From an uncultured Candidatus Saccharibacteria bacterium (GTDB lineage: Bacteria; Patescibacteriota; Minisyncoccia; Phycocordibacterales; JAACPR01), in NCBI GenBank assembly GCA_964618845.1, contig CAZUCU010000001.1, forward strand, positions 468 through 64,467: DNA of 64,000 nt. Direction: 5' to 3'. Both the position numbers and the translations under genes were made by a program. Positions 25-25,464 of this stretch are shown piece by piece. Below the pieces are notes generated by a model. That model worked only from the letters and a program-made list of their open reading frames with translations. It ran no database searches and was not told the origin of the DNA. Position 1 is the first letter of the stretch; each line of letters opens with the position of its first letter.

Positions 25-708
25 ATGTTAGTTGTTGGAAATGAATTCAAAAAAAATAAAGAAGACGATTTTTTTGTCCACAGGTGGACAGTTGACGGTG
101 ATTTATCTTTTAAAATTGAGGAAGCGATTAAGAATTTATACAAATCGCTTTCCATAGATCAAATTATTTCGGAATCAGAAATAAATTCTGCTTTTCTAAA
201 TTATTTACACGACATTGATATTAAAAATAAAAATGAAGAGATTTTAAAAAATTGGTTAAATCTTTCTAAGAAAATAAATAAAAACCCGTTAGGTGAATGG
301 GGTAGAGCAGACTCACCAAACATTAATGTAAAAGGAATTAGAGACTATGCTTACTTAATAATTAGAAGACATGGTTCACCAATACATTTTAGAGAAGTTG
401 CGGATCAAATAAATAAAATTTTTGCAAAAAAAGCACACGTTGCAACTTGTCATAATGAGCTTATAAAGGATCCGAGGTTTGTCTTGGTTGGGAGAGGTTT
501 ATATGCTTTAAAAGACTGGGGCTATGCTTCTGGAGTTGTAAGAGATGTTATTAAAGAAATTTTATTAAAACATGGGCCTTTGAGTAAGGAAGAAATTATT
601 AATAAAGTTTTGAAGGAAAGATATGTAAAAGAAAATACTGTTTTAGTAAATCTACAAAATCCAATTCATTTTAAAAAAGACAAGGATGGAAAATATTTAG
701 TTGTTTAA
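25..708 (+). CDS. Hypothetical protein with a probable HARE-HTH-type winged helix (RNA polymerase delta-like / restriction-enzyme-associated HTH). The N-terminus may extend upstream of the window.
   Basis: 227-aa ORF. A segment RRHGSPIHFREVADQINKIF resembles the HARE-HTH core. No other motif recognised. Confidence 0.4.
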   Translation: MLVVGNEFKKNKEDDFFVHRWTVDGDLSFKIEEAIKNLYKSLSIDQIISESEINSAFLNYLHDIDIKNKNEEILKNWLNLSKKINKNPLGEWGRADSPNINVKGIRDYAYLIIRRHGSPIHFREVADQINKIFAKKAHVATCHNELIKDPRFVLVGRGLYALKDWGYASGVVRDVIKEILLKHGPLSKEEIINKVLKERYVKENTVLVNLQNPIHFKKDKDGKYLVV

Positions 709-749
709 AATCTGTATCTCTTAATTTCTATCTGTTATAATATACTCAA

Positions 750-2009
750 ATGGAAATTGAATTAGGAAATTTATTTGCTGATACTTTTGATTTTATCTTT
801 TTCATATTGCCAATAGCTTTACCTATTATTTTAATTTGGATTAGTTTTGATTTTTTTATTGAATATAAAAGAAAAAAATTTTTAAATTCTTTAGAGTGGA
901 TTTTATTGGAGATTGTTCCTCCTGCTGATGTCAAAAGATCACCTATGGCAATGGAGTTGTTTCTTTTGGCGTTGTATCAAACATCGGGTGAGGGTGATTG
1001 GTATGCAAAATATATTGAAGGAAAATTTAGAAGTTGGTTTTCTTTGGAATTGGTTTCTTTGGGTGGGGTAGTAAAATATTTTATTAGAACAGAAAAGAAA
1101 TACAAAGTTATAATAGAAACAGGATTATATGCACAATTTCCAGGTATAGAAATATATGAAGCAAAAGAAGATTATACAGATGGTTATTATTATGACGAAA
1201 ATAAATTTGAACTATTTGGTTTTGAACTTAAACTCACTAAAGCGGATCCGTATCCAATTAAAACTTATGTTGATTATAAATTAGATTCTGAGCAAGAAGA
1301 TGAATTTAAGGTTGATCCAATTTCTCCTGTTTTGGAATTCTTAAATGCTGTTAAACCAAAAACCAATGTATGGATGCAAATAATAATTAGAGCACACAAA
1401 GAAGAAGATTTAGATACAGATAAATGGTTTCCTGCTTTATCCAAGAAAAAAGACAATTGGAAAGAAGAAGCTAAAGATGAAATCAAAAAAATTAGAGAGG
1501 AATCCTTTTTTGAAATAGAAGAAGGGAGTGGCGATAAAAAAACTAAGAAAAAAAGCGCACAACAAACCCCGGGGCAAAAAGAAACTATCTCTGCTCTTGA
1601 AAGAAGCATCTCTAAATTTGGTTTTGATGTTGGTATAAGAATGATTAATATTTCTGCAAAGGAGGATTTTGACAAAGGAAATAATGCAGGAATGCTTGGT
1701 TCTTGGAAACAATATAATTCTCCCAATCTAAATGGCTTTAAACCTGGTTATATTACTGATTTTGATTGGTGGTATCAGGATCCATTTAAAAAGAAATTAA
1801 AAAAAATTAAAAAGAATATATTAGAAGCTTATAAAGATCGAAATTATTTTTGGAAGAGAAATTATAAAGGTGAAAAAAGACAGCACTTTGTTTTGAATAC
1901 CGAGGAGCTTGCAACAATATATCATTTTCTTGGAAGGGTTACAGAAGCTCCTTCTGTTGCAAAAGTAGAAGCACGGAAAGTCCCTCCTCCTAATAATTTG
2001 CCGATATGA
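750..2009 (+). CDS. Hypothetical membrane protein: N-terminal TM helices and a Lys/Glu-rich C-terminal region.
   Basis: 419-aa uninterrupted ORF in an AT-rich genome where stop-free runs are rare. Hydrophobic segment FFILPIALPIILIWISF. Preceded by a TCTGTTATAATA promoter-like motif 7 nt before the ATG. Confidence 0.5.
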   Translation: MEIELGNLFADTFDFIFFILPIALPIILIWISFDFFIEYKRKKFLNSLEWILLEIVPPADVKRSPMAMELFLLALYQTSGEGDWYAKYIEGKFRSWFSLELVSLGGVVKYFIRTEKKYKVIIETGLYAQFPGIEIYEAKEDYTDGYYYDENKFELFGFELKLTKADPYPIKTYVDYKLDSEQEDEFKVDPISPVLEFLNAVKPKTNVWMQIIIRAHKEEDLDTDKWFPALSKKKDNWKEEAKDEIKKIREESFFEIEEGSGDKKTKKKSAQQTPGQKETISALERSISKFGFDVGIRMINISAKEDFDKGNNAGMLGSWKQYNSPNLNGFKPGYITDFDWWYQDPFKKKLKKIKKNILEAYKDRNYFWKRNYKGEKRQHFVLNTEELATIYHFLGRVTEAPSVAKVEARKVPPPNNLPI

Positions 2010-2992: not shown

Positions 2993-4078
2993 ATGGATAT
3001 AGAAAATAAAAAAGTTTTAGTAGGTTTATCGGGAGGAGTAGATTCGTCTGTTGCTTGTTTGTTGCTCAAAGAACAAAAATATTCTGTAGAAGCTGTATTT
3101 ATTAAAGTTTGGCAACCTGATTTTATTGAATGTAATTGGCGAGAAGAGATGCGAGATGCAATGCGAGTTTGTATTCAGCTTCAAATCCCTTTTCATTTTT
3201 TAGATTTAGAAAAAGAGTATAAAAAGAGGGTTGCGGATTATTTTATAAACGAATATAAAGCAGGTAGGACCCCAAATCCAGACGTAGTATGTAATAAATA
3301 TATTAAATTTGGTCACATGTTTGATTATGCTAAAAAAAATGGATTTGATTTTGTGGCTACAGGACATTATGTTAGAAATCTAAAAAATAAACTTTTTCGT
3401 GGTAAGGATTTAGACAAAGACCAAAGTTATTTTTTGTGGTCGCTTACCAAAAAAAGATTAAATAAGATTTTGTTTCCAGTAGGAGATTTAAATAAAGAAG
3501 AAGTTAGAAAAATTGCAAAAAAACATAATTTATTCAATTCTAAAAAAAAAGATTCGCAGGGTATTTGTATATTGGGCCCAATTAATATGAAAGATTTTTT
3601 AAAAAAATATATTGATGTCAAAAAAGGTGATGTTTTAGATAAAAGTGGTTCAATTATAGGAACGCACGAAGGTGCAATTTTATATACTATTGGTGAAAGA
3701 CATGGATTTACAATCGATAAAAAACATAAGAGTTCGAGTGATAAAACCCTGTATGTAATAGAAAAAGATGTGGCAAAAAACATAATTATTGTTTCAACGA
3801 GAAACGAGAAGCGAGAAGTAAGAAATATTGAATTGAAAGATGTTTCGTTTATAGATAAAGAAGTTGAGGGAGAAATAGAAATTCAAACAAGATATAGACA
3901 AAAGCCACAAAAAGGAATTTTATTAATAGATAAAAGGGAGAAGCGAGAAGTAAGAAGTAAGAAGTGGAAATTAGAAGCAAATTTTGAAGAAGACCCAGCC
4001 GTTGGGCAATCTGTTGTTTTCTATAAAGGCGATGAGTGTTTAGGTGGAGGAATTATAGATAAAATATTTTTTGAATAA
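2993..4078 (+). CDS. mnmA: tRNA-specific 2-thiouridylase MnmA
   Basis: PP-loop motif VLVGLSGGVDSSVA at the N-terminus. Conserved GHY and cysteine-containing segments of MnmA. 361 aa. Contains in-frame insertions derived from GAGAAGC repeats (EKREVRN and REKREVRSKK). Confidence 0.85.
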   Translation: MDIENKKVLVGLSGGVDSSVACLLLKEQKYSVEAVFIKVWQPDFIECNWREEMRDAMRVCIQLQIPFHFLDLEKEYKKRVADYFINEYKAGRTPNPDVVCNKYIKFGHMFDYAKKNGFDFVATGHYVRNLKNKLFRGKDLDKDQSYFLWSLTKKRLNKILFPVGDLNKEEVRKIAKKHNLFNSKKKDSQGICILGPINMKDFLKKYIDVKKGDVLDKSGSIIGTHEGAILYTIGERHGFTIDKKHKSSSDKTLYVIEKDVAKNIIIVSTRNEKREVRNIELKDVSFIDKEVEGEIEIQTRYRQKPQKGILLIDKREKREVRSKKWKLEANFEEDPAVGQSVVFYKGDECLGGGIIDKIFFE

Positions 4079-4082
4079 ATTT

Positions 4083-4706
4083 TTAGGTTCTCGGATCTGT
4101 TTTTTTCCATTCAATAATTTTTCCAGCTTTTATTTCCATTTTATCTGCTTTCCTTAAAAATTTTTTATTTTTTGGGGGGTAAAATCTTTTATGTGGACTT
4201 TTCTCTAATGCCTCTGCAATCTCAAAAAGTTCTTTTTTACTTGTTATCCACTTAGTTCCAAACCTTCTCATATCAAAGGGTAAAGAATAACTTTCTAAAA
4301 TTTTTTTACCGGTTTTGATATCAAAATATTCATGAAAATAAGAAAGTGCTAATTCTCTGATTGTCTTATAAACGGGATCACGAAATCGAAGAGTCGCATG
4401 ATTAGTTTTGCTTATTGCTCCCCAATGTCCATTTATCTTATAAATAGCCAAAGTATGGTCATCTCCACAATCAGATTTTAAGTCTAATATATAAGATTTT
4501 TGCTTATTAATCCAAAAACATAAAACAGCAAACATTGCTCCCTCCAAACAATGCGCTTTATTTTTTTGGAGAACTCTTTGGGGTGACATATAAGTTTCAC
4601 CATCTTTTTCCCAATTTATTGGTATGGTATCCAAAAAACTTTGAATTTTGATCGGAGTATTTATTTTTTTTAAAATTTTAATTTCTTCTTTTGTAAGTCC
4701 AAACAT
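4083..4706 (-). CDS. Putative transglutaminase-like cysteine peptidase domain protein
   Basis: Cys-His-Asp arrangement resembling the TGc core: KAHCLEGAMFAV, GDDHTLAIY, RFRDP. Confidence 0.4.
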   Translation of the reverse strand: MFGLTKEEIKILKKINTPIKIQSFLDTIPINWEKDGETYMSPQRVLQKNKAHCLEGAMFAVLCFWINKQKSYILDLKSDCGDDHTLAIYKINGHWGAISKTNHATLRFRDPVYKTIRELALSYFHEYFDIKTGKKILESYSLPFDMRRFGTKWITSKKELFEIAEALEKSPHKRFYPPKNKKFLRKADKMEIKAGKIIEWKKTDPRT

Positions 4707-4745
4707 ATATTGATGTTAACAAAAAATCATTTATACTAAAAGTCC

Positions 4746-5144
4746 ATGAAAAAATATGAGCCAAAGAATTTTAAGCTAAAAGTAAAGAAATCAAAAACCG
4801 GACTTGGTCTTTTTGCTGATGAAAATTTATCAAAAGGTCAATGTGTAATTGAATATGTTGGTAGAGAGATTTCTGAAAGAGAAAAATATACAAGTAGAAG
4901 TAAATATTTATTTGAAATAAATTCAAAGATAACTATTGATGGGCAAGATAGAAAAAACAAAGCTAGATATATTAATCATTCTTGTCGCCCAAATTGTGAA
5001 ATTAAAATAAAAAATAAAAAAATCTTTGTAATGTCTCTTAAAAAAATAAAAAAGGGAGAAGAATTAACTTATGACTATGGAGAAGAATATTTTGATGAAC
5101 ACATAAAACCCAAAGGTTGTAGATGTTGCAAGTGTTATAAGTAG
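4746..5144 (+). CDS. SET-domain protein (putative protein-lysine methyltransferase)
   Basis: Canonical SET motifs INHSCRPNC and ELTYDYG. Cys-rich post-SET tail CRCCKCYK. 132 aa. Confidence 0.8.
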   Translation: MKKYEPKNFKLKVKKSKTGLGLFADENLSKGQCVIEYVGREISEREKYTSRSKYLFEINSKITIDGQDRKNKARYINHSCRPNCEIKIKNKKIFVMSLKKIKKGEELTYDYGEEYFDEHIKPKGCRCCKCYK

Positions 5145-5167
5145 AGAGGTTGTTTTTTTCTATTTTC

Positions 5168-5176
5168 TGTTATAAT
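5168..5176 (+). promoter_or_regulatory. Extended -10 element TGTTATAAT, 8 nt upstream of the ATG at 5185 (leaderless-type promoter)
   Basis: TGnTATAAT consensus match. Part of the recurrent TCTGTTA(A/T)AATA motif. Confidence 0.5.
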
Positions 5177-5184
5177 AGCCTTGT

Positions 5185-5661
5185 ATGAAGAAAGGCGTAT
5201 TTATTTTCGTTGTTTTATTAATAATTTCGATTTTATTTATAATTTTTTCTCTATTAAAATTTCAAAAAAATAACAAATTAGAACCCGTATCTAGAGAGGA
5301 AGTACAAAACATCACCGAGGAAGAACCATTTGAATCTTTGGTTGTTAAACATCAATATAAAGATAACAAACATATTTTTGTTGGGGATTTACAATTACCA
5401 ACACCCTGTCATGAATTTGAAGTAAAGATTGAAGACACAAATGACCCAAATATTAAAAATATAAATTTTTTTACTAAACAAAATAATGAACAAGAAACTT
5501 GCGCTCAAATAGTAACACCAAAGGCTTTTCGTATTGAATATACAGGACCGGAAAATTTAGAATTTAAAGCTTTTATAGACAAAATTCCACGAAGATTAAA
5601 TATTTTTAATTTAGCACCAGATGTAGATATTGATGAATTTGAATTATTTATAAAGGGGTAA
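5185..5661 (+). CDS. Hypothetical membrane-anchored / secreted protein
   Basis: N-terminal hydrophobic segment VFIFVVLLIISILFIIFSLL followed by a hydrophilic domain with two Cys. 158 aa. Confidence 0.5.
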   Translation: MKKGVFIFVVLLIISILFIIFSLLKFQKNNKLEPVSREEVQNITEEEPFESLVVKHQYKDNKHIFVGDLQLPTPCHEFEVKIEDTNDPNIKNINFFTKQNNEQETCAQIVTPKAFRIEYTGPENLEFKAFIDKIPRRLNIFNLAPDVDIDEFELFIKG

Positions 5662-5664
5662 ATT

Positions 5665-6501
5665 ATGGAAGTAACAAAAAGAGATGGTACAAGTGAAGAA
5701 TTTAATGAACAAAAATTTTTGAATTCTTTGGAAAAAGCTGGTTTCTCAGATTTAGAAATTAAAATTGCCTTAGAAAAAACAAAGGAATCTTTATACGATG
5801 GTATTACTACTGATTTAATTTATGAAAAAGCATGGGAAACATTAAAAAATATCCAAAATGTTGAACCCATTGTTAAATATTCTCTTAAAAGAGCAATTTT
5901 GGAACTTGGACCTTCTGGTTTTCCTTTTGAACAGTTGGTTGCAAAAATCTATCAAGAATTAGGTTATAAAACCTTAACCGGAATTATGCTTGAAGGAAAA
6001 TGTATAGATCATGAAATAGATGTTATCGCTTATAAAGAAAATGAGCTACTTTTGATTGAAGCTAAATTTCACAATGAACAGTCTATGAAATCTGATACTA
6101 AGGTTGCCCTTTATGTAAAAGCACGTTTTGATGATCTAATTAATATAAAATTTGATATAGACGGTAAAAAAAGAAAGATGACAAGAGGGGTTTTGATTAC
6201 CAATACTGGATTTACTAATAATTCTAAAAAATATATAAAATGTGTTGATACTTTTGATATGATAAGTTGGTCTTATCCAAAAGATCAGGGTTTATTAAAG
6301 ATGATAGAAGATCACCACATTCATCCAATTACTTCCATTCCTAAATTATCTCAAAGGGAAAAGGGAGAGTTAATAGAAGCAGGATATATTTATTGTAAAG
6401 ATATTTTGAAAAATCCAAACATCCTTGATCAATTTAAAATTGTTGGTGAAAAGAAAAATGAAATTTTGAAATTTGCTCGAATAATTTGTAACGAAAAATG
6501 A
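5665..6501 (+). CDS. ATP-cone domain fused to an Mrr-like (PD-(D/E)xK) restriction endonuclease domain
   Basis: N-terminal VTKRDGTSEEFNEQKFLNSLEKAGFS matches the ATP-cone fold (as in NrdR and RNR). C-terminal CIDHEIDVIAYKENELLLIEAKFH has the D...E-x-K signature of Mrr_cat nucleases. Confidence 0.6.
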   Translation: MEVTKRDGTSEEFNEQKFLNSLEKAGFSDLEIKIALEKTKESLYDGITTDLIYEKAWETLKNIQNVEPIVKYSLKRAILELGPSGFPFEQLVAKIYQELGYKTLTGIMLEGKCIDHEIDVIAYKENELLLIEAKFHNEQSMKSDTKVALYVKARFDDLINIKFDIDGKKRKMTRGVLITNTGFTNNSKKYIKCVDTFDMISWSYPKDQGLLKMIEDHHIHPITSIPKLSQREKGELIEAGYIYCKDILKNPNILDQFKIVGEKKNEILKFARIICNEK

Positions 6502-8225
6502 CACATCAAAAATTGCGACAAAAATATTTTGATTTTATAAAAAACAAAGGTTTTGAAATTGTTCCGTCTGCATCACTTGTTCCAGAAAATGATTCTTCGA
6601 TTTTATTTACAACAGCCGGCGTTCAACCGCTCGTTCCATACCTTATGGGAGAAAAACATCCTAAAGGAAACAAACTTGCAAATATTCAAAAATGTACACG
6701 AACAATAGATTTAAACTCAATCGGTGATGATACCCATCTATCTTTTTTTGAAATGATAGGTTATTGGTATTTGGGAGAAAGCAAAAAAAGTCTCAAAAAA
6801 AAGGGTATAGAGACCACTTATGAAATGTTTTTTAGTAAAAAATGTTTTGGACTTGATATCAACAAAGCATATCTCACTTGTTTTGAAGGAAATGAAATTT
6901 CTCCGAAAGATGAGGAAAGTGCAAATTATTGGCAAGATTTAGGAGTTGCAAAAGAAAAAATTTTTTATACTGTTGATTCTAATTGGTGGGAAACAGGGGA
7001 AAATGGTCCTTGTGGTCCTGATAGTGAAGTTTTTTATAATATTTCGGGTGAGAATTTGGACATAAAAAGTAAAGAGGATTTTTTGAAAGCAGATAAAGAG
7101 GGGAAGATTGTAGAAATTGGAAACACAGTTTTTATGTTATTTGAAAAAAAAGATGGAAAAATTGTAGGTGAATTGAAACAACAAAATGTAGATTTTGGAG
7201 GAGGGTTTGAAAGACTTCTAATGGTTGTACAGAATAAAAATTCTGTTTACGAAACTGATTTATTTGAATCTCTTGTAAATAAAGTAGGTGGCAATAAAAT
7301 TATAGCCGATCATTTACGAACTTCTGTAATGATAATTTCTGATAAAGTTTTGCCAAGTAATACAGACCAGGGATATATTTTGAGAAGACTTATCAGAAGA
7401 ATTGTTAGATTTGCTAAAGAATTAAACATTAAAAAAGAAAAACTTCTTGAGGCAACAAATGAAATAGTTAAAATTTATAAAGGGGTATATAAAATTTTAG
7501 ATAAAAAAGAACTACATAAATTATTAGAAGAAGAAATAGAAAAATTTGAAAAAACTTTGGAAAGGGGATTAAAAGAATTTGAAAAAATGAGTAAAAATGG
7601 AAGAATCTCTGGTTATGATACTTTTATTCTTTTTACTACCCACGGTTTTCCATTTGAAATAATAAAAGAATTAGCAGATGAGAAAGGAATTTTTATAGAT
7701 GAAGAGGAATTTAAAAAAGAATTAGAAAAACATAGGAAACTTTCCAAAACCGCATCAGCCGGAAAATTTAGAGGGGGTCTTGCAGGAAATAGTGAAATTG
7801 AAATTAAATATCACACCGCGACACATCTTTTAAATGCGGCGCTTAGAAAATTTTTGGGAGATCACATTTACCAAAAGGGAAGTAACATAAACATTGAAAG
7901 ACTTAGGTTTGATTTTTCTCATAATGAAAAAATAGAAAAAGAAGTCTTGGATAAAATTGAAAATCAAGTGAACAAATGGATAAAAGAAAATATTTCAGTT
8001 GAAAAATTAGAAATGTCATACAATGAAGCCAAAAAAATGGGAGCAATTGGTGTTTTTGATGATAAATATGGAGATATTGTTTCGATTTATAAAATTGGAG
8101 ATATTTCGATGGAACTTTGTGGTGGTCCTCATGTTAAAAATACTGGAGAAATAGGGAAATTTAAAATTATAAAAGAAGAGGCATCTTCCAAAGGTGTTAG
8201 AAGAATAAAGGCCGTACTCGAATAA
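6498..8225 (+). CDS. alaS: Alanine--tRNA ligase, short form lacking the C-terminal DHHA1/oligomerisation region
   Basis: Class II catalytic core (FTTAGVQP). Editing-domain motif HTATHLL. CGGPHV near the C-terminus. Only 575 aa. Confidence 0.85.
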   Translation: MTHQKLRQKYFDFIKNKGFEIVPSASLVPENDSSILFTTAGVQPLVPYLMGEKHPKGNKLANIQKCTRTIDLNSIGDDTHLSFFEMIGYWYLGESKKSLKKKGIETTYEMFFSKKCFGLDINKAYLTCFEGNEISPKDEESANYWQDLGVAKEKIFYTVDSNWWETGENGPCGPDSEVFYNISGENLDIKSKEDFLKADKEGKIVEIGNTVFMLFEKKDGKIVGELKQQNVDFGGGFERLLMVVQNKNSVYETDLFESLVNKVGGNKIIADHLRTSVMIISDKVLPSNTDQGYILRRLIRRIVRFAKELNIKKEKLLEATNEIVKIYKGVYKILDKKELHKLLEEEIEKFEKTLERGLKEFEKMSKNGRISGYDTFILFTTHGFPFEIIKELADEKGIFIDEEEFKKELEKHRKLSKTASAGKFRGGLAGNSEIEIKYHTATHLLNAALRKFLGDHIYQKGSNINIERLRFDFSHNEKIEKEVLDKIENQVNKWIKENISVEKLEMSYNEAKKMGAIGVFDDKYGDIVSIYKIGDISMELCGGPHVKNTGEIGKFKIIKEEASSKGVRRIKAVLE

Positions 8226-8261: not shown

Positions 8262-9350
8262 ATGATGACAAAAGTTTTAGAAACCAAACTCGTTGTTTCT
8301 TTTAAAAGTTCAAGCATTGATCTTTCTGTTGTTGATTATGAAAATAAAATTCCAAGTATATTATTTACAACAAAAAATTTACTTTTGAGTAATAAACAAT
8401 TGACACCAAATGAATTTGTTGAAATTAGCCTGAAATCTTTGCAAAAAATGCTTGTAGATAATTCTTTTGAACTCAAAAAACATTTAAAAGAATCAAATAA
8501 ATGTGAGATTATTTTTCATTCGCCATGGTATTTAGCAGAGTTAATTTCAGAACAACACTCTGAGGGCAAAAAAGGATTGAAGCAATTTTTTTTGGAAAAA
8601 GTAAAACCACCAAAACAAAATGACTATTTGCAAATAGAAAATAAAATAACAAATATAATTTTAAATGGATATCAATTAACGAAATTACGAGATGTTGAAG
8701 GAGATGAAATACAAATAAATATTTATAGAAGTTTTGTCTCCCAAAGTAGTATCATAAAAATTAAAGAAATAATAAAAAATGAATTTAGGCAGTTTTGTTT
8801 TTTTGAATTTTCAACAAGTGCAATGATGATATATGAAACTATAAAAAATATTTTTGTAGATGAGGATAATTGTATTTTTATAAATATTGGTGGTGAAATT
8901 ACAGAAATTGGAGTAATTGAAGATGACATATTGGTTGATTTTATGACTATTCCAATTGGAATACATTTCTTTCAAAGAGAGCTGGAAACCTTTCTAACAG
9001 ACAAAAAAATATTGGATACCATAAAATTTTTATCAAATAACAAGACCGATGAAAATCTTAATCCCAAAAATAACGAGATGTTATCAACTACTGTAAAAAA
9101 TTGGGTAAATGAAGTTTTTGAAATTTTTTTAAATCAAAAAAAAGAATTTCCTAAAAAAGTTTTTGTTTTTACAAACTCAACAGCTGATGAATTTTTTAAA
9201 ATGATTTTTAAAAACAATGAGACATTAAAGAATTTTGAATTTTTCCACGTGATTTATGATACTTTTAGTAGTAGAATGAATATTCCAAGTAATGGAAAGG
9301 TTGATATTGAGTTTTTATTAAGTTCTTATTATTTGTCAGTCAAAAGTTAA
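8262..9350 (+). CDS. Hypothetical protein, possibly with an actin-like ATPase fold (FtsA/PilM-like)
   Basis: Segments SSIDLSVVD and IFINIGGEITEIGVI resemble the phosphate-1 and phosphate-2 motifs of the ASKHA fold. Weak. Confidence 0.3.
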   Translation: MMTKVLETKLVVSFKSSSIDLSVVDYENKIPSILFTTKNLLLSNKQLTPNEFVEISLKSLQKMLVDNSFELKKHLKESNKCEIIFHSPWYLAELISEQHSEGKKGLKQFFLEKVKPPKQNDYLQIENKITNIILNGYQLTKLRDVEGDEIQINIYRSFVSQSSIIKIKEIIKNEFRQFCFFEFSTSAMMIYETIKNIFVDEDNCIFINIGGEITEIGVIEDDILVDFMTIPIGIHFFQRELETFLTDKKILDTIKFLSNNKTDENLNPKNNEMLSTTVKNWVNEVFEIFLNQKKEFPKKVFVFTNSTADEFFKMIFKNNETLKNFEFFHVIYDTFSSRMNIPSNGKVDIEFLLSSYYLSVKS

Positions 9351-9354
9351 ATTT

Positions 9355-10716
9355 TTGTTTATGAGAAAAAAAATTATGCAAGATGTAATACCACCAAATC
9401 AAAAAAGATCTATAAGAGATATTCCTTTGCCAAGAAGTAGAAGGGGAAATTCTGATATAAAAATAAACAATGAGGAAGAATTTTTTCAAGAAAAATCATT
9501 TGGAAAAATAGATACAAAAAATATACCCCCAGACACAGATTATGAAGAGAACTCCTATTATGACGAAGAGAAACCTAAAAAATATTTCAAGAAAATTTTG
9601 TTTCTGTTTTTTTCTTTTTTTGTAATTTTTTCTCTATTGTTTTTTTTAAGGACAAAAGCCGAAGTCACAATTATACCAAAAAAAGAAACATCCAATATCT
9701 CTGGTATATATGAAATCAAAGAAAAAAATCAAAATACAGATTCCAATACTCTTGTATACGATAAGATTTTTGAAATTGAAAAGCAATCCTCAATAACTGC
9801 TGAATCCTCGGGAGAAGAAGAAGTAAAACAAAAAGCTTCTGGAATTATAAAAATATATAACGAATACTCCAAAGAAAAACAAAATTTAGTAAAAAACACT
9901 AGATTTGAGGCCAAAAATGGACTTATATTTAGAGTAGCAAATTCTGTTGAAATACCAGGATATAAAGAAGAAAATGGAAAAATTATTCCAGGCGAAGTAG
10001 AAGCAGAGATATTTGCTGATGAAGAAGGAGAAAAATATAATCTTTCAAAAACAAAATTCACTATTCCAGGATTCCAAAAATATCCAGATCGATATCAAAA
10101 GATTTATGCAGAATCTACAACAGATATTACTGGAGGATTTATTGGTAAAAAATACATAGTTTCTGAAGAAGATAAAAATTCTGCATTAGAAAAGCTGAAA
10201 CAAGATATTAAGGAACAGATGATTAAAGAAGTTAAAAATTATGATGGCAATTTCTTTATTATTTTTGATGAAAGTAAAATTAATTATTCAAACCTTGTAG
10301 AAGAAAACAGTGAAAATAAAGTAAACCTGAAAATAAGTGCTAATGTGGATGCTTATGCTTTTAATCTGAAAGATTTTTCTAAGTTTTTTGTAAAAAATCT
10401 AATCGTTGGTTCACCAGAGGGGGAAGTTATTATTACGAATCTCGACGAAATAAAATTTTCTTTGATTACAATAAAACCAGAAGATGAAAATCTTACAAAT
10501 AAACTAAGTTTGTCTGTTGAGGGCAATATGAATTTTGAGTGGGTAATTGATACTGAAGTATTAGCCCAAGAATTATCAGGGAAAAATAGAACTGAATTAC
10601 GGTCTATTTTGGAAAATAAAATTGCAATTTCTAAAGCTGAATTTGAACTGTCTCCTATGTGGAGCAAAAAATTTCCAAGAAATCCATCAAAAATAAAATT
10701 TACAATTAATAAATAA
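9355..10716 (+). CDS. Hypothetical membrane-anchored protein (about 80-aa cytoplasmic N-terminus, one TM, large extracytoplasmic domain)
   Basis: TM segment FFSFFVIFSLLFFL. 453 aa. Long stop-free ORF. Confidence 0.5.
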   Translation: MFMRKKIMQDVIPPNQKRSIRDIPLPRSRRGNSDIKINNEEEFFQEKSFGKIDTKNIPPDTDYEENSYYDEEKPKKYFKKILFLFFSFFVIFSLLFFLRTKAEVTIIPKKETSNISGIYEIKEKNQNTDSNTLVYDKIFEIEKQSSITAESSGEEEVKQKASGIIKIYNEYSKEKQNLVKNTRFEAKNGLIFRVANSVEIPGYKEENGKIIPGEVEAEIFADEEGEKYNLSKTKFTIPGFQKYPDRYQKIYAESTTDITGGFIGKKYIVSEEDKNSALEKLKQDIKEQMIKEVKNYDGNFFIIFDESKINYSNLVEENSENKVNLKISANVDAYAFNLKDFSKFFVKNLIVGSPEGEVIITNLDEIKFSLITIKPEDENLTNKLSLSVEGNMNFEWVIDTEVLAQELSGKNRTELRSILENKIAISKAEFELSPMWSKKFPRNPSKIKFTINK

Positions 10717-25438: not shown

Positions 25439-25464
25439 ATCAAAATTTTGTTATAATCTTATAA

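Follow-up and report, generated by a model that had tools for sequence, protein, structure and literature searches.

An AF1548-like protein joining an ATP-cone to an Mrr-type nuclease domain in the candidate phyla radiation: a candidate nucleotide-gated nuclease for nucleic-acid turnover

The window analyzed here, 64,000 nucleotides (nt) of contig CAZUCU010000001.1 from an uncultured Candidatus Saccharibacteria bacterium, carries on its forward strand, at 5665-6501, a gene for a protein of 278 amino acids (aa) that joins an ATP-cone to an Mrr-type PD-(D/E)xK nuclease domain and an AF1548-like C-terminal domain. We refer to this gene as cone-Mrr. Our data indicate that its product is a new member of a catalogued, uncharacterised family of AF1548-like proteins found across bacteria and archaea. 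From its conserved residues and the operons of its distant homologs, we favor, at about even chances, an adenine-nucleotide-gated DNA endonuclease that would serve turnover or salvage of the cell's own nucleic acids, not anti-phage defense. A first-pass annotation of the window had treated the gene and three of its neighbors as a candidate defense or effector module. That framing falls, since the juxtaposition of the four genes is confined to a single species, two of the four are well-conserved genes of the candidate phyla radiation (CPR), and one product, the protease CPR-C4, was already published.

Domain architecture and family of the nuclease protein

The protein divides into the following parts (window coordinates):

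5665-5904, forward strand: ATP-cone, putative ATP/dATP sensor, residues 1-80
5905-5931, forward strand: linker LGPSGFPFE, residues 81-89 (family consensus LGPxGFxFE), ending in the first catalytic-core glutamate, E89
5917-6264, forward strand: Mrr-type PD-(D/E)xK nuclease domain, residues 85-200, with predicted catalytic residues E89, D119 and E132-x-K134
6277-6498, forward strand: AF1548-like C-terminal helical domain, residues ~205-278, helix-hairpin-helix (HhH)-like

The first-pass annotation had read this protein as an ATP-cone fused to a PD-(D/E)xK Mrr domain, and our data bear this out. The Pfam models for the ATP-cone (residues 1-76, E=4.9e-9) and for Mrr_cat (PF04471; residues 85-192, E=3.3e-8) both match above their gathering scores, and phmmer aligns residues 90-272 with PDB 1Y88, the AF1548 protein of Archaeoglobus fulgidus (E=9e-27). 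A profile built from 115 sequences matches 1Y88 at E=3.2e-40 and NrdR ATP-cones at approximately 0.01. AF1548 was predicted in 2007 to be a restriction-type nuclease with catalytic residues D38, E51, and K53 (PMC1821046), and D119, E132, and K134 of the window protein align to these three positions. The C-terminal domain is a probable non-specific binder of the DNA backbone.

Conservation extends over sensor, linker, and nuclease. Across 27 sequences from bacteria and archaea, we found the cone residues K5, G8, E11, and K17, the linker residues G82, P83, G85, and F88 together with the core glutamate E89, and the nuclease residues E117, D119, E132, K134, and H136 to be invariant; among 115 CPR sequences, the invariant stretch around the linker comprises L81, G82, P83, G85, F86, F88, and E89. 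In the NrdR protein of Streptomyces coelicolor, K50, E56, and F58 bind the inner-site ATP and K62 belongs to the outer site, and mutation abolishes nucleotide binding (PMC9110341). A profile alignment via Escherichia coli NrdR equates these four residues with K5, E11, F13, and K17 of the window protein. Since residues of the sensor and of the nuclease are both invariant, both appear to be under purifying selection, and this pattern suggests a nuclease coupled to a nucleotide sensor. The proposal of the first-pass annotation that the nuclease is gated by nucleotides is thus reasonable in view of the kept NrdR contact residues and catalytic residues, with the gating itself a prediction. A further set of residues, C113, H116, H136, and C193, is invariant in 115 CPR homologs; when bacteria and archaea are taken together, H136 remains invariant and C113 and C193 are conserved at 90% or more, whereas archaea often have Q in place of H116. 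These four residues may form a metal or structural site beside the active center.

The family is compact. In a word-indexed search, the window protein as query returned 2811 clusters and AF1548 returned 980; an exhaustive search of 1.84 billion representatives returned 349 clusters (50% identity) at E<=1e-30, rising to 686 at E<=1e-10. Of the best 150 representatives, nearly all are ~270-290 aa long and align from query residue 1-5, which indicates that the cone is an essentially constant component of these proteins. From Patescibacteria to DPANN archaea and Archaeoglobi, members keep the three domains in an essentially fixed layout. The main carriers are Patescibacteria (Paceibacteria/Parcubacteria lineages), DPANN archaea (Aenigmarchaeota and Nanoarchaeota), Archaeoglobi, and Hadesarchaea, with scattered carriers in Bacteroidota, Chlamydiota, and others.

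The fusion is already catalogued (PDB 1Y88, Pfam PF22357, and names at NCBI) and is not a one-off. All three domains are modeled in Pfam, where PF22357, 'AF1548-like, C-terminal', covers the C-terminal part, and database entries bear the names 'ATP cone domain-containing protein', 'Restriction endonuclease/ATP cone domain', and 'Holliday junction resolvase'. The true AF1548 gene encodes ~265 aa and carries the ATP-cone, as seen in a 99%-identical full gene (protein P0241, Archaeoglobus). The crystallized AF1548 (1Y88, 199 aa) derives from an N-terminally truncated gene model, and the published structure therefore lacks the regulatory domain. We searched the literature on the ATP-cone together with nuclease, defense, Mrr, COG1787, AF1548-like, or CPR, and no study of what the fusion does came to light. 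The statement of the first-pass annotation that this is not a named system is half right: no named defense system in PADLOC matches it, while the fusion as such was on record.

Operon links, proposed function, and inheritance

Operon-level evidence for a function comes from three lineages outside the CPR. The two plasmid-borne copies, one in Criblamydia sequanensis and one in Pontibacter actiniarum (WP_237151220), each stand first in the same tight operon, in which cone-Mrr is followed by genes for a metallo-beta-lactamase (MBL)-fold hydrolase, a thymidine-phosphorylase-family protein (TP), and a ribose-phosphate pyrophosphokinase (Prs). NCBIfam assigns the MBL-fold partner to the beta-CASP nucleases of the aCPSF1 type, describes the phosphorylase as archaeal AMP-phosphorylase-like (TIGR02645 at 602 bits, above the cut-off; AMP_phos at 506 against a cut-off of 535), and places the kinase in the PRK07199 subfamily of phosphoribosyl pyrophosphate (PRPP) synthases. 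In the Bacteroidetes lineage UBA2664 (L030), the same beta-CASP gene, 57% identical, lies directly downstream of cone-Mrr. The nuclease homologs of Criblamydia, Pontibacter, and UBA2664 have the full three-domain architecture with the key residues intact. The module, in whole or in part, lies at the following positions of the loci:

L171, 6001-10608: beta-CASP/TP/Prs module
L172, 1972-6597: beta-CASP/TP/Prs module
L030, 8001-10209: beta-CASP/TP/Prs module
L173-L175: beta-CASP/TP/Prs module

The TP gene was found on 127 plasmids. Three further TP plasmid records have Prs after TP in all cases and the MBL gene before TP in two, in surroundings of a stress or energy-starvation type (universal stress proteins, alcohol dehydrogenases, P-type ATPases, and phosphate acetyltransferase), and genes for phosphoketolase and acetate kinase and glgP border the Criblamydia module. 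We found no paper on this beta-CASP/TP/Prs stress-island module. CPR and DPANN organisms are predicted nucleotide salvagers, with nucleoside degradation via AMP phosphorylase and form III RuBisCO and nuclease digestion of imported DNA (PMC7304191, PMC7414124). Because the operon link occurs in three distant lineages and the family correlates with this lifestyle, a nucleotide-gated nuclease of salvage or turnover is the best-supported hypothesis.

In the mechanism that we propose, the cone would bind ATP or dATP (or ADP or AMP), and binding would change the oligomeric or conformational state of the protein, as in NrdR and ribonucleotide reductases (RNRs); in NrdR, binding of ATP/dATP to the cone changes the oligomeric state among dodecamer, octamer, and tetramer (PMC9110341). 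This change of state would switch the nuclease on or off, with the conserved linker (residues 81-89) transmitting the signal of the cone to the nuclease domain. The HhH-like domain would bind DNA without sequence specificity, and a signal of need from the adenylate or dATP pool of these nucleotide-scavenging organisms would prompt the cutting of DNA, to supply turnover, salvage, or the recycling of nucleotides; repair would be an alternative output of cleavage. A more specific proposal, which we put forward tentatively and hold to be somewhat doubtful, is that AF1548-like proteins are the first ATP-cone-controlled nucleases and form an energy- or dATP-gated valve feeding DNA into recycling or catabolism, from the beta-CASP nuclease to the AMP-phosphorylase-type enzyme and on to pentose phosphate or PRPP. 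If true, such a valve would explain how nucleotide-auxotrophic CPR and DPANN symbionts digest scavenged or surplus DNA while sparing their own genome when pools are adequate.

The interest that remains lies in the family, which is compact and ancient, joins the sensor of RNR and NrdR to a catalytically intact nuclease, and is common in both great radiations of ultra-small, nucleotide-scavenging prokaryotes. Were adenine-nucleotide gating to be shown, ATP-cone allostery would extend beyond RNR and NrdR, and the gating would offer a handle on DNA as a nutrient in CPR and DPANN organisms. The operon link in the cultivable Pontibacter and Criblamydia makes the salvage idea testable.

The position of cone-Mrr was compared over 160 loci, 80 from genomes baited with the nuclease and 80 from metagenomes baited with mnmA. 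The corresponding part of the window, which is ~28% G+C and densely coding, contains:

2006-2986: mltG
2993-4078, forward strand: mnmA, the synteny anchor, normally directly upstream of cone-Mrr
4083-4706, reverse strand: CPR-C4-family cysteine protease gene (the earlier 'TGc-like' open reading frame), 207 aa
4746-5144, forward strand: minimal SET-domain methyltransferase gene (PF00856), 132 aa, with a post-SET Cys cluster
5168-5176, forward strand: extended -10 element TGtTATAAT, 8 nt before the sec158 ATG at 5185
5185-5661, forward strand: sec158, the operon's first gene; its 158-aa product has a hydrophobic anchor at the N terminus
5665-6501, forward strand: cone-Mrr, encoding the AF1548-like protein, 278 aa (ATP-cone, Mrr_cat, and AF1548-like C-terminal domain)
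6498-8225, forward strand: alaS, its start overlapping the nuclease stop (ATGA)

The gene order in the nuclease-baited loci is leuS-like, HARE-HTH, DUF8128, mltG, mnmA, sec158 where present, cone-Mrr, a variable set, alaS, two conserved uncharacterised genes, infA, and rpsM/K/D. Among loci with enough DNA, 62 of 72 have mnmA upstream in the same orientation (with a gap below 180 nt in 41), and 42 of 52 have alaS downstream, again in the same orientation. In the unbiased mnmA-baited set, cone-Mrr directly follows mnmA in 28 of 53 loci (~53%). Pairwise identities of cone-Mrr correlate with those of mnmA, mltG, and alaS at Mantel r of 0.73, 0.81, and 0.54, compared with 0.43 and 0.73 for housekeeping-pair controls, and its mean pairwise identity (0.49) is similar to that of mnmA (0.52) and higher than that of mltG (0.40). 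These correlations at control level and these identities point to vertical inheritance at a housekeeping-like rate. Copies of cone-Mrr were absent from viral contigs and from all 50,697 phage records, and were found in 2 of 72,556 plasmids. In Paceibacteria, cone-Mrr is a single chromosomal gene at a fixed position, common, stable, and dispensable. The surrounding backbone (window 25-2009 and 8262-10716; loci L001-L160) is itself syntenic across dozens of Paceibacteria genomes. It encodes HARE-HTH and DUF8128 (750-2009) proteins and, downstream of alaS, two uncharacterised proteins of 362 and 453 aa, the former of which has no Pfam match.

Given the 3-nt gap between sec158 and cone-Mrr and the ATGA overlap between cone-Mrr and alaS, the three genes can be read as one transcription unit. 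We consider cone-Mrr and alaS to be probably co-transcribed and translationally coupled, and operon membership probably ties cone-Mrr to an essential gene. The extended -10 that the first-pass annotation placed 8 nt before the sec158 ATG can be read directly at 5168-5176 (it was found by reading and not by a promoter scan), and it is a probable leaderless promoter of sec158, cone-Mrr, and alaS. The exact motif (TGNTATAAT) occurs 15 times in the window against 5.15 +/- 2.1 expected, and eight of these sites lie exactly 6-8 nt before the ATG of a long open reading frame (158-491 aa):

733-741, forward strand: extended -10 site
5168-5176, forward strand: extended -10 site
25449-25457, forward strand: extended -10 site
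58238-58230, reverse strand: extended -10 site
54813-54805, reverse strand: extended -10 site
43028-43020, reverse strand: extended -10 site
41031-41023, reverse strand: extended -10 site
34825-34817, reverse strand: extended -10 site

With 8 of 15 motifs at this spacing, leaderless mRNAs look systematic, which suggests a property of this genome that is not particular to sec158. A scan of 3900-6700 showed no enrichment of sigma-70-like sites, with 12 present where 15 were expected, and predicted no terminator-like hairpin. The mnmA and CPR-C4 genes converge, their stop codons being only 4 nt apart (window 4076-4086). Scans of the window for tRNAs and Rfam families returned one tRNA-Glu only, and the window holds no second ATP-cone, RNR, or member of the salvage module, a result that is uninformative at the scale of a 64-kb fragment.

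Neighboring genes and rival explanations

The four open reading frames between mnmA and alaS are present where the first-pass annotation had placed them, and its domain calls proved correct. The gene at 4083-4706, called a TGc-like fold, encodes an ortholog of CPR-C4, a published CPR cysteine protease (PMC9108980), and shows the features of that protein, namely a vasohibin-like/transglutaminase-like fold, a Cys-His-Leu(carbonyl) triad, and a tri-Asp Zn site. The SET call is supported by a match to PF00856 over the full model (E=1.3e-25) and by the translation of 4746-5144, which shows RYINHSCRPN (with the NHSC motif), ELTYDY, and a C-terminal Cys cluster; a methyltransferase role is predicted. 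The 158-aa protein has no Pfam, NCBIfam, or PHROG family of note. The view that none of these genes is housekeeping did not hold, as two of the four are widely conserved in CPR.

Nor do the four genes form a conserved cluster. The SET gene was found in none of the 160 loci, and the 207-aa CPR-C4 gene in none of the nuclease-baited loci and in 1 of 80 mnmA-baited loci. Homologs of sec158 occur in 6 of 80 nuclease-baited loci by tblastn (10 loci by clustering) and in 1 of 80 mnmA-baited loci, and only the closest relatives (including L161 and L162) have one immediately before cone-Mrr. The arrangement of the window recurs solely on contigs from different samples that encode an identical SET protein, which indicates the same species. 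Among relatives on long contigs, the closest (67% identity) carries neither the SET nor the 207-aa gene; its genes run from RmuC, L21, and a hydrolase through a sec158-like gene and cone-Mrr to alaS and beyond. Our data indicate that the CPR-C4 and SET genes are unrelated, species-specific insertions between mnmA and the sec158/cone-Mrr/alaS unit.

The recurrent CPR neighbors of cone-Mrr are a family-4 uracil-DNA glycosylase (UDG), a Cas4/AddB-like nuclease, an MGMT domain protein, a YfbR-like 5'-deoxynucleotidase, an HD_4 protein, MgtC, PCMT, a DUF7282 protein, and large (~590-610 aa) putative M3-type peptidases, the last named from sequence and not by profile scan. The Cas4/AddB-like PD-(D/E)XK nuclease, which has an N-terminal Cys motif, lies 1-3 genes downstream of cone-Mrr in L032 (7110-7940) and in 23 other CPR loci, is solitary, and has no other cas genes nearby. 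An MgtC-family gene is present in 16 of 80 nuclease-baited CPR loci (for example L032, 6586-7086) and is the immediate downstream gene in 11. In Ferroglobus (L165, 5958-7786), CorA ends at the start base of cone-Mrr. These Mg2+-related neighbors could reflect Mg-ATP homeostasis or coincidence. Outside Paceibacteria (L030, L040, L060, L068, and L069) and in three archaeal loci, the neighbors are miscellaneous housekeeping genes with no common theme except the beta-CASP gene in L030. Repair genes co-occur with cone-Mrr (Fisher p=0.002-0.03). We rejected this co-occurrence as functional evidence because an unrelated M3 peptidase gives the same statistics, and the pattern is therefore one of block synteny.

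No restriction-modification or defense neighbors were found in ~170 loci (CPR, other bacterial, and archaeal). With PADLOC-DB v2, the four window proteins gave weak nuclease-domain matches only (ZorD, 1.5e-4; CARF-PDDEXK, 1e-3), and the notable matches among ten recurrent neighbors were limited to the solitary Cas4-like nuclease and to PCMT, which matched mad2 through a generic methyltransferase domain. A scan against PHROGs gave an RNR cone match only. The survey of homologs that the first-pass annotation had envisaged thus shows no conserved co-occurrence with SET, TGc, or defense genes. The homologs are also not confined to nrd operons, a placement that the same annotation had named as contrary to its reading: RNR genes are absent from the annotated neighbors in CPR, other bacterial, and archaeal loci.

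Several observations weigh against a salvage or turnover nuclease, and some of them favor its rivals. The operon linkage is found in only three non-CPR lineages whose proteins are ~35% identical, it was not seen in the CPR and archaeal loci examined, and only 2 of the 127 TP plasmids also carry cone-Mrr, which is thus an occasional first gene of the module. Nucleotide binding, nuclease activity, and substrate are predictions for every member of the family. Cone-Mrr is dispensable, being missing downstream of mnmA in ~47% of related loci, and MgtC still follows mnmA in 7 of 15 cone-less loci; patchy presence also fits an accessory or defense gene. The characterized relatives of Mrr_cat are Type IV restriction enzymes, and the ligand-gated PD-(D/E)xK nucleases Can2, Card1, and NucC, typical defense effectors, are structural neighbors, as is Cap4. 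A single-gene anti-phage or abortive-infection nuclease that senses a phage-caused collapse or imbalance of ATP/dATP and then degrades DNA would share this logic of sensor and PD-(D/E)xK effector, and the weak PADLOC matches to ZorD and CARF-PDDEXK nuclease domains agree with it. We nevertheless judge defense distinctly unlikely, and the first-pass proposal of a defense module is unsupported, given the fixed housekeeping position, the vertical inheritance at a housekeeping-like rate, the probable co-transcription with alaS, and the lack of defense or restriction-modification neighbors. Furthermore, the protein has no domain recognizing modification or foreign DNA, and the gene is nearly absent from mobile elements, with both plasmid copies in a metabolic operon. 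A joint action of CPR-C4, SET protein, secreted protein, and nuclease as a four-gene effector module, for example against the host cell of the episymbiont, would draw on their adjacency in the same order on several contigs from different samples, on bacterial SET proteins and cysteine proteases being known effector types, and on a weak NCBIfam likeness of the window SET protein to the SET domain of Legionella LegAS4. It is largely refuted by the missing co-occurrence, the recurring contigs being of the same species and the closest long-contig relative lacking both genes, and we see scarcely any likelihood in it: the CPR-C4 gene lies on the opposite strand and has an 80%-identical homolog between rpoB and trmD in another genome, and no signal sequence is evident in the translation of the nuclease or of CPR-C4.

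A nuclease of DNA repair or recombination is unlikely, though we rate it above the readings just discussed. Such a protein would be a structure-specific endonuclease of the XPF/Mus81/Hef or NucS type, with the cone limiting cutting to states in which enough dNTP or ATP is available for repair synthesis, and the CPR neighbors (UDG, the Ogt-like protein, and the Cas4-like nuclease) fit repair as well as salvage. This co-occurrence is, however, confounded by lineage and reflects a synteny block; repair neighbors are absent from archaeal and other bacterial loci except for DinB in L040, Geoglobus has a genuine Hjc three genes away, and the sole linkage at operon level connects the gene with nucleotide catabolism. 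From the cone, which is closest to NrdR-type cones, and from one source that names a homolog 'transcriptional regulator NrdR family protein', one might instead suppose a DNA-binding regulator like NrdR, nuclease-dead and controlling transcription through its ATP-cone. We rejected this reading, to which we leave only a very slight chance, because the complete set of PD-(D/E)xK catalytic residues shows no variation in either of two domains of life; moreover, the protein has no Zn-ribbon and its annotated neighbors include no RNR genes.

Comparison with known systems

The closest known protein is AF1548 from A. fulgidus, which has a structure, (PDB 1Y88; PF04471 and PF22357), which is ~31-35% identical to the window protein and differs in genomic context. 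Archaeal members lack an insertion of ~9 residues present at residues ~160-170 of the window protein, and the crystallized construct lacks the cone. NrdR shares with the window protein an ATP-cone with conserved nucleotide-contact residues, but its output domain is a Zn-ribbon where the window protein has a nuclease and an HhH-like domain. Indeed, the window protein begins at the beta-hairpin of the cone (MEVTKRDG), with no Cys4 motif and no N-terminal Zn-ribbon. Among the neighboring genes, the product of 4083-4706 is a mesophilic, low-GC ortholog of CPR-C4 (PDB 7OB6/7OB7/7PJO; Cornish et al. 2022, PMC9108980).

The Type IV restriction endonucleases E. coli Mrr and MspJI/AspBHI share the Mrr_cat catalytic domain with the window protein. 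At the N terminus, they carry a modification reader (an Mrr_N winged helix or an SRA-like domain), whereas the window protein has an ATP-cone there, and its family shows no sign of restriction function, island location, or mobility. Can2, Card1, NucC, and Cap4 sense cyclic oligonucleotides through a CARF/SAVED (or NucC-type) sensor, whereas the putative sensor of the window protein is an ATP-cone for housekeeping nucleotides, and its gene is vertically inherited without a cyclase or CRISPR partner. Finally, the order of a restriction-endonuclease-fold nuclease followed by a C-terminal HhH domain is that of XPF/Mus81/Hef, a likeness seen in the HhH matches of the window protein. XPF/Mus81/Hef proteins combine an ERCC4 nuclease with an (HhH)2 dimerization module, whereas the window protein combines Mrr_cat with one small HhH-like domain and an ATP-cone.

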